A stretch of DNA of 6,361 nucleotides from Candidatus Helarchaeota ASGARD archaeon Hel_GB_B. Its GTDB lineage: Archaea; Asgardarchaeota; Lokiarchaeia; Helarchaeales; HEL-GB-B. The notes under the pieces were generated by a model, which ran no database searches, had not been told where the DNA came from, and saw nothing but the letters and a program-made list of their open reading frames with translations. The stretch spans positions 1 through 6,361 of the forward strand of contig SUPR01000153.1 in NCBI GenBank assembly GCA_005191425.1, written 5' to 3'. This document shows positions 152 to 5,550 of the stretch, piece by piece; position 1 is the first letter of the stretch, and every line of letters starts with the position of its first letter. The position numbers and the translations under genes are program-made.

Positions 152-847
152 ATGAATGGAGGGCTTATTTTGACAGATAATAAAAAATCATTAAGAGAAG
201 ATAAAGGATTAATTTTTACAATTATTATCTGGCTATTTAATATGACCTGTTTAATAATTCTATTAATATTTGGGGAATTAAGTACTTATATGCCTATAAT
301 TTTAATACTCTTTCTATTGGGAATTTTAGTTATTTTGATTAGATTTGTAAAGGTTATTTCTAAAAAAGCTAAAAAAACAAGACAGATTATAAACGAACTA
401 AAAGATGAAATATTTGAATTCGTTCCTGAAGTATATAAAGTTAAGTTATATATGCAGCCAACAAAATTAATGGCAGTACCAAATTTTATAAATGATATTG
501 ATGAAGCAGCAATATCATTAGCAAAAACAATAGATGAAAATGCAATAATAAGTACCAAGGGTTTATCTTATTATTCGATGTATTGTGAATTTTTAGTTCC
601 ATCAATTAAAGTATATGGGTTTATAAAGTCCAAGAAAAAAGGGTATTCTGGAAAACCCAAAAATATAGTTACAGAGATTACATTAGAAGATCCTGAGGAG
701 GAGGTTAAAAATTTTGCAAGAGGAATTATTGCAATACTAGATAGATTACCTTGGGAGAATGTAAAATGGAAAAAGATAGAGAAAGCATTTAAGGTAAAAA
801 GAGAAGAATGCATCGAAAAATGGAAAGAGATATTAGATATAGAATAA
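152..847 (+). CDS. Hypothetical membrane protein: N-terminal two-TM hairpin plus cytoplasmic alpha/beta domain (TBP-like/adaptin-platform-like by topology) and a Trp-rich C-terminal helical pair. Real start may be TTG at 170 (225 aa).
   Basis: 231-codon ORF. Hydrophobic stretches at aa ~19-41 and ~46-66 are followed by the basic KVISKKAKKTR, so the positive-inside rule puts the C-terminal domain in the cytoplasm. Alternating helix/strand pattern at aa ~77-198. PWENVKW...EKW at the C-terminus. The CDS itself is secure; the fold call is tentative. Confidence 0.9.
   Translation: MNGGLILTDNKKSLREDKGLIFTIIIWLFNMTCLIILLIFGELSTYMPIILILFLLGILVILIRFVKVISKKAKKTRQIINELKDEIFEFVPEVYKVKLYMQPTKLMAVPNFINDIDEAAISLAKTIDENAIISTKGLSYYSMYCEFLVPSIKVYGFIKSKKKGYSGKPKNIVTEITLEDPEEEVKNFARGIIAILDRLPWENVKWKKIEKAFKVKREECIEKWKEILDIE
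158..163 (+). promoter_or_regulatory. Shine-Dalgarno-like GGAGGG for a TTG start at 170
   Basis: GGAGGG(158-163)-CTTATT-TTG(170-172), in frame with ORF 152-847. It is a rare G-rich island in an otherwise AT-rich leader. Confidence 0.55.
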
Positions 848-881
848 AAATACATAAATAAAGAAGATAAAATGAATATGG

Positions 882-3728: not shown

Positions 3729-3765
3729 AAAAAAAGATATTATTAAAATTTTAATTATAAAAAAA
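3729..3765 (-). terminator. Candidate archaeal oligo-T terminator(s) of the minus-strand MHD-like gene
   Basis: On the minus strand a T7 run (3765-3759) directly follows the TAA stop, and a second T7 run lies at 3735-3729. Confidence 0.45.
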
Positions 3766-5550
3766 TTAACTTACAGTATATTCTAATTCAGGAGGTGTAT
3801 ATTCACCTGAGCCTTTGATTATGTAAGCTAAATTAATTCTTTCATTTGCTTCAACTTTATCAAAACGCCATATTAATCTTGTTGATCCATCTTCTTGGTC
3901 TATGATTTCGGGTTTTAAGTCTTCGGGTTCCCAACTTACAAGGGTAAAGTTAGTCGGTATTAAATCTTTGATTTCTACATTTTCAAGGACAATTTCGCCT
4001 TTATTTTGGAATATTATAGGTATTCTATACTCTCCTTCTGTTTCTAGAGGTTGGACTTGTTTAAGTGCTCTAATCTTTCTTTGTACATATTTGACTCCTA
4101 TTTCTAAATCTATAGTATCTGGTTTAACAGGTGGGCCAGCTGGTTTAACATTAGCTGATACAGTCAATGGGCATTTATGTTCAACTTTTGGTTTTGGATT
4201 TATTGCTGTTAGTTGATAATTTACTGAGAATTGGCTTTCAGGTTTAAATCCTTCAATTAATTTATTTAGGTCAGTAATATCTACAATTAATTTATGTTCA
4301 ACGCTTGGGTCATCATTATCTGGTTCTATTTTTAATGTGATTCCTTCTTTCATTTCTTTCATATCTAAGAAGAAATCTACGGTACCTTTTTCAGGTGGTT
4401 TGAAATCAGGGGGGATAACATCTTCTATATGAATTTCATTAAGAGCAGCTGAACCTGTATTTTTTACAATTAATTTAACATCTAATGTATTAGTTGCATA
4501 AGCTGGAATTTCAGGGGGTTCGACAATTTTTTCAATTTGTATATCTGCAACAGGAATAATATTTTCTTTTCTAACAACTTCTCCTATAATTTTTCTATGT
4601 ACAACATAATTAACAGTAAAATCATATTCATTTTTAAATTTAGGAACTCCATCTGATTTAACGGTAAAATCTTTAGACCATGAAGTTCCTGTTTTAACAA
4701 TTGTTTGTGGAGCTTCTTCAATAACGACTTCTTGGAGGTTCGGTTTTAGATGAATAACTTTTACACTTCTTAATGTAGTATTTAATCCACTTGAATTTTC
4801 AAATTCTGCAGTGCATTCCCATAATCCTGGACTTTCCATACTCTCACTGATATCTACTGCAAAAAGATTATCTGTATGTCCTTCAACCATTCCATCTAAT
4901 TTTGTTCGTATAATATCAAGAACTTCATAAGTAGCTTTTATTTCTCCCGCTCCGTATGGTTCTTTAGTCTCAGGAGTAAATGCACTTCTAATTTCTGTTT
5001 CTACTTTTGCTTTAGGTCCTAAGGAATCAATTTCCCATAATATTTCATGATTAGAAGAATCATAACTTAATTTTCCAACCACATTACTCTGATCAAAAAT
5101 TGGCTCTGCAAAATACTCGTGTAATTTTTTTACAATTTTTATATTTTTCATTGTTGCCTCTGATGTATTCTCTACCGTTAATCGAAAAGCGGTTGGCATT
5201 CTTTTACCCAAAACACCTGCCCAATTTTCTGCCGGTAATTCATAATATGTATCAACTGTCTCAGTAATAAATAAAACTGGAGCTTTTATTATATCTGGAT
5301 TAACTTCATAAGATTGAACCCATTTATTTCCTGATTTAATTTCATTAATTTTAAATAAATCGTCTTCTAAATTAGTGATATCAATACCTTTAAGAGATAA
5401 TTTTACATTCCATACCCTTGTAGTTGAAGGATTTATTACTGATACTTCTCCTTTTACATTGATTTCCTCAACAATATCTGAATTATTGTAAATAGCTTTT
5501 TCATATTCTGTGAAATCTATGATTAGTTCATTTTTTACTTCATCACTCAT
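3766..5550 (-). CDS. Cytoplasmic multi-Ig-sandwich protein (594 aa): mu-homology-domain (MHD/Adap_comp_sub)-like N-terminal half plus two DUF11-like domains; Asgard-type eukaryotic-signature-protein candidate
   Basis: Long ORF; the preferred start is ATG at 5550 (MSDEVKNE), 9 nt after GGAGGT. KNELIIDFTEYEKAIYNNSDIVEEINVKGEVSV resembles mu1 KNEVFLDVIESVNLLVSANGNVLRSEIVGSIKM. NIKIVKKL..FAEPIF..VVGKLSYDSSNHEILWEIDSL resembles mu NVEIHIPV..ADSPKFKTTVGSVKWVPENSEIVWSIKSF. DUF11-type motifs are IQIEKIV..VKLIVKNTGSAALNEIHIEDVIPPDF and ALKQV..IIFQNKGEIVLENVEIKDLIPTNF..LIWRFDKV. No signal peptide or TM helix. The CDS is secure; the family call is about 0.65. Confidence 0.93.
   Translation of the reverse strand: MSDEVKNELIIDFTEYEKAIYNNSDIVEEINVKGEVSVINPSTTRVWNVKLSLKGIDITNLEDDLFKINEIKSGNKWVQSYEVNPDIIKAPVLFITETVDTYYELPAENWAGVLGKRMPTAFRLTVENTSEATMKNIKIVKKLHEYFAEPIFDQSNVVGKLSYDSSNHEILWEIDSLGPKAKVETEIRSAFTPETKEPYGAGEIKATYEVLDIIRTKLDGMVEGHTDNLFAVDISESMESPGLWECTAEFENSSGLNTTLRSVKVIHLKPNLQEVVIEEAPQTIVKTGTSWSKDFTVKSDGVPKFKNEYDFTVNYVVHRKIIGEVVRKENIIPVADIQIEKIVEPPEIPAYATNTLDVKLIVKNTGSAALNEIHIEDVIPPDFKPPEKGTVDFFLDMKEMKEGITLKIEPDNDDPSVEHKLIVDITDLNKLIEGFKPESQFSVNYQLTAINPKPKVEHKCPLTVSANVKPAGPPVKPDTIDLEIGVKYVQRKIRALKQVQPLETEGEYRIPIIFQNKGEIVLENVEIKDLIPTNFTLVSWEPEDLKPEIIDQEDGSTRLIWRFDKVEANERINLAYIIKGSGEYTPPELEYTVS

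Follow-up and report, generated by a model that had tools for sequence, protein, structure and literature searches.

The window analysed here is a whole contig (C62; 6,361 bp) of an Asgard metagenome-assembled genome (MAG; 3.54 Mb, 28% GC, 93.7% complete). It contains three long open reading frames (ORFs), with ORF1 and ORF2 on the forward strand and ORF3 on the reverse strand. An earlier, sequence-only reading placed the three ORFs at these same positions and took them for a minimal proto-adaptor module, in which a mu-homology domain (MHD) protein (ORF3) and a platform-like membrane protein (ORF1) might read a tryptophan-acidic (Trp-acidic) array in a helical protein (ORF2). The three genes are real, and the MHD of ORF3 is strongly supported, but the genes are probably unlinked in function (a probability of about three in four) and the module would be a chance neighbourhood in one genome. 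The proposal depends on adjacency in a single genome, where a duplicated member of a catalogued family lies beside a gene without relatives and a representative of an unrelated Lokiarchaeial family; the arrangement is therefore best read as fortuitous. ORF3 would most likely serve as a soluble scaffold for the recognition of short peptide motifs or of protein surfaces, as its fold suggests. ORF2 would be an orphan limited to this species, in DNA that is unusually rich in AT, and ORF1 would belong to a Lokiarchaeial family of alpha+beta domains, here with a membrane anchor. Coordinates are given in Table 1.

The mu-homology domain of ORF3

The longest frame of ORF3 spans 3766-5604 (-) and encodes 612 aa from an upstream in-frame ATG at 5604. 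Homologues were collected in a word-seeded search of 5.8 billion proteins, which yielded eight clusters with 41-61% identity (alignment A1), one of them assigned to Candidatus Lokiarchaeota. Because all eight begin at the position of ORF3 Met19, the true start is likely nt 5550, which is also where the sequence-only reading placed the end of its stretch. ORF3 is predicted to be cytoplasmic rather than located at the envelope, since neither a signal peptide nor a transmembrane (TM) segment is present in ORF3 or in any family member checked.

The AlphaFold2 (AF2) model of ORF3, built with alignment A1, has a mean predicted local distance difference test (pLDDT) score of 87 and contains an MHD at aa 21-347 followed by two immunoglobulin (Ig)-like domains. 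In a Foldseek search with the whole chain, the matches are mostly generic multi-Ig proteins with a root-mean-square deviation (rmsd) of 30-50 Å. Amid these is one compact match, to AP-1 mu1 (4en2_A; rmsd 4.4 Å, TM-score 0.60 by target). When the model is re-aligned with VIA-align, MHDs are clearly top-ranked and the full domain is covered. The domain has the complete two-subdomain, all-beta fold of approximately 260 residues and superposes on solved MHDs, with which it shares 8-16% sequence identity. The sequence-only reading called this gene an MHD-Ig protein, and the model agrees.

Support from sequence is weak but specific. In a search of PDB sequences with the ORF3-family profile, AP-3 mu provides the only matches at E ≤ 10 (E 0.015). 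ORF3 itself has no Pfam match to Adap_comp_sub (PF00928), whose gathering score is 31.6 bits; three homologues score 17.3-27.7 bits and the second paralogue in this genome scores 17.8 bits, all under that threshold. A search of PDB sequences with ORF3 aa 19-130, aimed at the YxxPhi pocket, returned no MHD alignment. ORF3 Asp30, which differs across the family (D/E/K), is possibly the position that we take to be equivalent to mu2 Asp176, and this mapping is a lead only.

These values also bear on a competing view, that ORF3 is a DUF11-type multi-Ig protein resembling archaeal or chlamydial envelope proteins, with a first pair of beta-sandwiches that is just MHD-like. Such a view draws on the sub-threshold PF00928 scores, on the whole-chain Foldseek list (led by OmcB, integrins and other multi-Ig proteins), and on DUF11, which alone among Pfam families exceeds its cut-off and has one match (aa 139-208) inside the MHD region. 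It is opposed by the family profile, for which AP-3 mu is the sole PDB sequence match, and by the missing signal peptide or anchor, which is at odds with an envelope protein. There is very little chance that this view is correct, and the model argues for a genuine MHD in ORF3.

Downstream of the MHD, the layout is defined by DUF11-type repeats. Pfam DUF11 (PF01345) matches ORF3 in three stretches (46.1 bits; cut-off 24.6) and is present in all nine family members, and the NCBIfam family TIGR01451 (DUF11-type repeat) matches the second Ig-like domain at 37 bits (cut-off 24), as does Pfam DUF7619 (E 1.1e-4). A match of ORF3 to Pfam AF2028_C (PF27408) is found in precomputed annotation. The two C-terminal Ig domains were also considered as adaptin ear sandwiches; this assignment was rejected, as Alpha_adaptinC2 matches just two homologues, at E 0.17-0.21.

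Within the MHD, a segment of some 70 residues (aa 139-208, window 4981-5190) matches DUF11 in ORF3 and in most homologues, and the equivalent stretch in homologues P0006 and P0007 matches PF00928 at profile positions 127-206. This sequence bridge suggests that one MHD subdomain is akin to a DUF11 Ig repeat. Two motifs are invariant in alignment A1 and are candidate functional sites: D118-T-Y-Y-E ... N127-W-A, which lies in a lower-confidence loop, and P259-G-x-W-E-C-x-A-E-F-E-N-x-S.

The family is already on record. Eme et al. 2023 (Nature 618:992; PMC10307638) describe the mu-subunit C-terminal domain in most Asgard phyla, unfused to longin, and list Asgard Adap_comp_sub candidate eukaryotic signature proteins in their Supplementary Table 3. 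Their Jordarchaeia candidate carries the A1 motifs (DT-Y-E..NWAL and WECT-EF-N-S-F), which identifies the ORF3 family, at the level of sequence, with these catalogued candidates and ORF3 as another member. No literature that pairs Asgard with the mu homology domain by name was found.

The sequence-only reading labelled the protein Asgard-type, which is too narrow. The full-length architecture occurs in Atlas clusters from the Promethearchaeota, Thorarchaeota and Thermoplasmatota (TM-score 0.70-0.76 over 504-552 residues), and the top AFDB Swiss-Prot matches of the model are AF_2028 and MJ1393. The family is pan-archaeal (AF_2028-like).

Of 41 related genomes, 38 contain relatives of ORF3, often as multiple copies. 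In the tree, the only copy from the same-genus genome groups with the other copy in this genome (C136:7386-9167; support 100/99), and no orthologue of the window ORF3 was found in the same-genus genome. Because the same-genus copy pairs with the C136 copy, the window ORF3 is placed as an extra, lineage-specific paralogue. The C136 copy (locus L024 of this genome, G000) is a second MHD-DUF11 protein with 52% identity to ORF3, and it is the only sequence in the genome with even a weak PF00928 match. Its neighbours are NADAR-like and GH43-like genes, a setting shared with a Lokiarchaeota contig (L006), and both its position and the tree make it the orthologue of the same-genus copy.

A longer subfamily of 705-720 aa has approximately 30% identity to ORF3 and continues for some 110 further residues at the C-terminus (Table 1). 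Its genes consistently have two divergent upstream neighbours, one for a Cys-rich protein of 276-282 aa that no Pfam family matches and one for a protein approximately 120 aa long. Neither this genome nor its same-genus relative yielded a member of the subfamily.

The orphan ORF2 and the membrane protein ORF1

ORF2 has no TM segment, and its composition (Gly plus Pro, 5.2% of residues) suggests that it is probably helical. At this base composition, random codons would be stops about 9% of the time (an estimate), and an open frame of 904 codons at 22.5% GC cannot be chance. Searches for homologues returned only self-matches in the word-seeded search of 5.8 billion proteins and in an exhaustive phmmer search of 1.84 billion representatives. 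None was found by tblastn in 40 relatives, including the same-genus genome, or in an IMG/VR scan, and no family in Pfam, NCBIfam, PHROGs or PADLOC matches. ESM-Atlas feature searches with the whole protein and with both halves score 0.81-0.84, which is chance level. The expectation that this gene is lineage-specific thus held.

The claim of a Trp-acidic array in a helical protein stood in its first part, and the helical part is a matter of composition. Eight of the 13 Trp residues of ORF2 (352, 358, 361, 364, 367, 370, 373 and 379) fall in an acidic stretch of 28 residues, a clustering with a permutation p ≤ 5e-6. A six-frame scan found one other WxxW run of this kind in the genome. Tandem Repeats Finder (TRF) reports a degenerate tandem repeat at 1986-2020 with a period of 9, 3.9 copies, and the consensus GATTGGGAA, which encodes Asp-Trp-Glu. 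Because the array sits on this 9-bp repeat, it would most simply have been born by slippage or duplication of a GAT-TGG-GAA unit. A Trp period of three residues also resembles structural Trp ladders (WSXWS, thrombospondin repeats), which are structural elements and not ligands. The acidic di-Trp pattern of delta-COP ligands, W-x(1-6)-[WF], is matched by WTDWEDWDNLEDWDE and the preceding WxxW units of ORF2, as a pattern match only. A complex prediction for ORF3 aa 19-350 (alignment A1) with ORF2 aa 340-400 gave no answer (score 0.00) and counts neither way.

ORF1 has two hydrophobic segments by hydropathy. Its AF2 model (pLDDT 81) contains helices at aa 14-39 and 43-88 and then an alpha+beta domain at approximately aa 95-228, as anticipated for a two-TM protein with an alpha/beta domain. 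The domain is predicted to be cytoplasmic because the flank after the second TM helix is strongly basic. ORF1 has no match in Pfam or NCBIfam, its PDB sequence profile search returned TM-helix noise alone, and Foldseek against the PDB gave no match at E ≤ 0.001. Relatives of the soluble part have 26-31% identity and occur in 14 of 41 genomes. Most are separate proteins approximately 155 aa long; one has a TM anchor, and another is a fusion with zinc ribbons.

The member fused to two zinc ribbons is encoded at L013:1495-2196. In alignment A2, the family has a C-terminal motif, W-x-K-I-x-K-x-F-K-V-x4-C-I-x2-W-x2-L (ORF1 aa 201-231, window 752-844), that by eye looks like the second and third helices of a Myb/SANT repeat; Pfam Myb_DNA-bind_6 reaches just E 0.19. 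In genome G002 (L012:360-1905), the ORF1-family gene directly follows two genes, one for a 183-aa Arf/RagA-like GTPase (Pfam Arf E 2.8e-24) and one for a 147-aa protein that no Pfam family matches. The remaining six ORF1-family loci have unrelated neighbours.

A different account of ORF1 and ORF2 is that they form a recent or mobile-element-derived insert (from a virus, plasmid or defence island) beside the duplicated MHD gene, with ORF2 acting in conflict or mobile-element biology. Several features fit: by GC content, ORF2 ranks with the lowest 1.4% of genome windows, compared with a GC content of 30.8% in ORF3, ORF2 is an orphan absent from the same-genus genome, the contig is short with an extremely AT-rich flank, and viral clusters are among the nearest Atlas feature neighbours, yet at chance-level scores. 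Against these stand the lack of any PHROGs, PADLOC or IMG/VR match, and the absence from the window of tRNAs, integrases and repeat boundaries. In addition, Lokiarchaeia genomes natively carry the domain family of ORF1, and GC at third codon positions (GC3) in ORF1 and ORF2 (approximately 0.18-0.19) is not below that in ORF3 (0.145), which indicates host-like codon usage. An insert is unlikely on balance.

The spacer upstream of ORF3 (757 bp) has a GC content of 11.8%, below every 2.7-kb window of the genome, and contains no ORF of at least 60 aa, tRNA or Rfam match; the window as a whole has no Rfam family either. It contains numerous short AT repeats. A possible ribosome-binding site and ATG are found at approximately 6335-6353, at the contig edge, where the AT-rich tract ends.

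Synteny and the proposed adaptor module

Synteny was assessed in 40 relatives and in the surroundings (approximately 6 kb) of 12 further genes of the ORF3 family. ORF1-family matches are present in 13 of the relatives, and in none of the 40 does an ORF1-family gene share a contig with an ORF3-family gene. None of the 12 ORF3-family loci has an ORF1- or ORF2-like gene nearby. The three gene families do not recur together or as neighbours across genomes. For ORF2 and ORF3, the sequence-only reading had itself named this as an outcome that would refute its module; the module is unsupported.

The proposed interaction would make the ORF2 array a linear-motif ligand of the ORF3 MHD, and perhaps of the platform-like domain of ORF1, with ORF1 as the membrane anchor. 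It gains from the genuine MHD in ORF3, from the array being non-random and nearly unique in the genome, from Trp-acidic motifs being established MHD ligands in eukaryotes, and from the status of the window ORF3 as a duplicated paralogue that would be free for a new client. It is weakened by the orphan status of ORF2 in databases and relatives, by the separation of the ORF1 and ORF3 families, and by the orientation of ORF3, which is convergent on ORF2 and not co-transcribed with it, as the sequence-only reading had allowed. Furthermore, no other adaptor domains were detected by sequence in the genome, and the platform matches of ORF1 appear to lie within background. The motifs PGxWECxAEFENxS and DTYYE..NWA are, to our knowledge, not recognised among eukaryotic MHDs, which also counts against this interaction. 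Taken together, such a module is very improbable.

Several points nevertheless weigh against a reading of unlinked genes. ORF1 and ORF2 share a strand with a gap of 35 bp, are probably co-transcribed, and may be linked in function to each other. Among the weak fold matches of ORF1, platform subdomains of adaptin and COPI appendages appear repeatedly; these are equalled or outscored by the spermine synthase N-domain, Flpp3, the PGM C-domain and KA1. The position of a Trp-acidic array beside an MHD gene is a suggestive coincidence by analogy, since MHDs are known readers of Trp-acidic motifs. A duplicated MHD paralogue with a new gene is the expected look of a young reader-ligand pair, and non-conservation counts against an ancient module but not against a young one. 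Short contigs in many relatives also limit the synteny that can be observed.

Because of the gene distribution, any reader-ligand pair would be young and species-specific rather than an ancestral proto-coat. The repeat-born array of the orphan ORF2 would then dock on the duplicated MHD of ORF3 in the manner of Dsl1 or ArfGAPs on delta-COP, possibly tethered by ORF1. The odds of this are slighter still, and the preferred reading remains three genes that would have no functional link to one another. If such a pair existed, the reading of Trp motifs by MHDs would be an archaeal property older than eukaryotic coats.

For the MHD family, a Ras-family GTPase is a likelier candidate partner than either ORF1 or ORF2. 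In all family-f2 genomes and metagenome contigs examined, the next gene downstream of the ORF3 orthologue, in the same direction, encodes a Ras/Roc GTPase (323-340 aa) that is extended at its C-terminus by a Cys-rich region of approximately 200 aa (Table 1). In genome G003, a 171-aa Ras/Arf-like GTPase gene is convergent on the MHD gene (L030:6453-6968). In the related family f2 the orthologue is coupled to a GTPase gene, which is not so here; the GTPase homologue in this genome is unlinked to ORF3, on another contig (C96:17912-18796).

If proteins of the MHD-DUF11 family act as cytoplasmic readers of peptide motifs in archaea, the family would bear on the origin of eukaryotic coat adaptors, a question already raised by the 2023 catalogue. 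The present analysis adds a high-confidence model of another member, lineage-specific paralogues, and a Ras-family GTPase as a partner lead. It also adds a negative result, as the idea of a three-gene proto-adaptor drawn from fold resemblance fails the synteny test.

Table 1. Positions of the features in the window and of related loci elsewhere.
Feature	Position	Strand	Basis or remark
ORF1, 231 aa; two-helix membrane hairpin, alpha+beta domain, three-helix C-terminal end	152..847	+	Hydropathy, AF2
ORF1 soluble domain, aa ~90-231	419..844	+	Lokiarchaeial family
ORF2, 904 aa; soluble orphan	882..3596	+	Start TTG 882 or ATG 933
Trp-acidic array, ORF2 aa 352-379, W-x5-W-x2-W-x2-W-x2-W-x2-W-x2-W-x5-W	1935..2018	+	
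ORF3, MHD-DUF11-DUF11 protein, 594 aa from Met19	3766..5550	-	ORF list, homologue starts
ORF3 MHD, aa 21-347	4564..5544	-	AF2 model
ORF3 first Ig-like domain (DUF11/DUF7507, pilin-like), aa 352-506	4087..4551	-	
ORF3 second Ig-like domain (DUF11/DUF7619), aa 507-612	3769..4086	-	TIGR01451, Pfam DUF7619, all-beta model
AT-rich spacer upstream of ORF3	5605..6361		Composition; reaches contig end
Longer ORF3 subfamily	L031:5829-7946, L032:6131-8293, L033:6324-8486, L034:7857-9974		
Ras/Roc GTPases	L001:2990-3961, L004:9945-10931, L026:8420-9424, L027:2990-3961, L028:2825-3844		

Comparison with known adaptor and motif systems

The proteins closest to ORF3 are the Adap_comp_sub candidates of Eme et al. 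2023, which belong to the same family and are likewise stand-alone MHDs without longin. The window ORF3 differs in having no PF00928 match of its own, in being a second paralogue, and in its neighbours. Eme et al. 2023 (PMC10307638) report no structure, partners or function for these candidates.

In comparison with the mu subunits of AP-1 to AP-4, COPI delta, and the muniscins (FCHo/SGIP1), ORF3 has no N-terminal longin or F-BAR domain and instead has two DUF11 Ig domains C-terminal of the MHD. The MHD starts 2-3 residues past the likely start Met19, and there is no upstream longin fusion. Unlike the situation for AP and COPI complexes, large or small adaptor subunits are not detectable in this genome. 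The only PF01602 match scores 18.7 bits and is of a kind that also scores in control genomes, longin (PF01217) has no match in a search that matched no control genome either, and the adaptin appendage platform (B2-adapt-app_C, PF09066) has no match in a genome that is 93.7% complete and in which divergent homologues could be missed. In comparison with that platform, ORF1 has no sequence signal and no preceding Ig sandwich, is membrane-anchored, and has an extra three-helix C-terminal end.

The delta-COP MHD binds Trp-based acidic motifs of Dsl1 and ArfGAPs (ELM LIG_deltaCOP1_diTrp_1; Suckling et al. 2015, cited in PMC7145657), so that the background given in the sequence-only reading is correct. 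Mu2 binds WxxPhi motifs, according to PDB titles, and Trp-acidic motifs are established MHD ligands in eukaryotes (PDB entries 7oiq and 9pwc). Like the di-Trp motifs of the Dsl1 lasso and of Gcs1/ArfGAP1, the ORF2 array has Trp residues 2-5 residues apart in an acidic context, apparently between helical regions of a large protein. It differs from them in its strict three-residue periodicity, derived from a 9-bp repeat, and in belonging to an orphan unrelated to tethering complexes or ArfGAPs.

The AF_2028/MJ1393-type DUF11 proteins are similar to ORF3 in length (approximately 600 aa) and align over residues 2-492; an MHD in them is putative. The Thermoplasmatota Atlas cluster, which in part carries AF2028_C, aligns with the ORF3 model at a TM-score of 0.70 over 504 residues.

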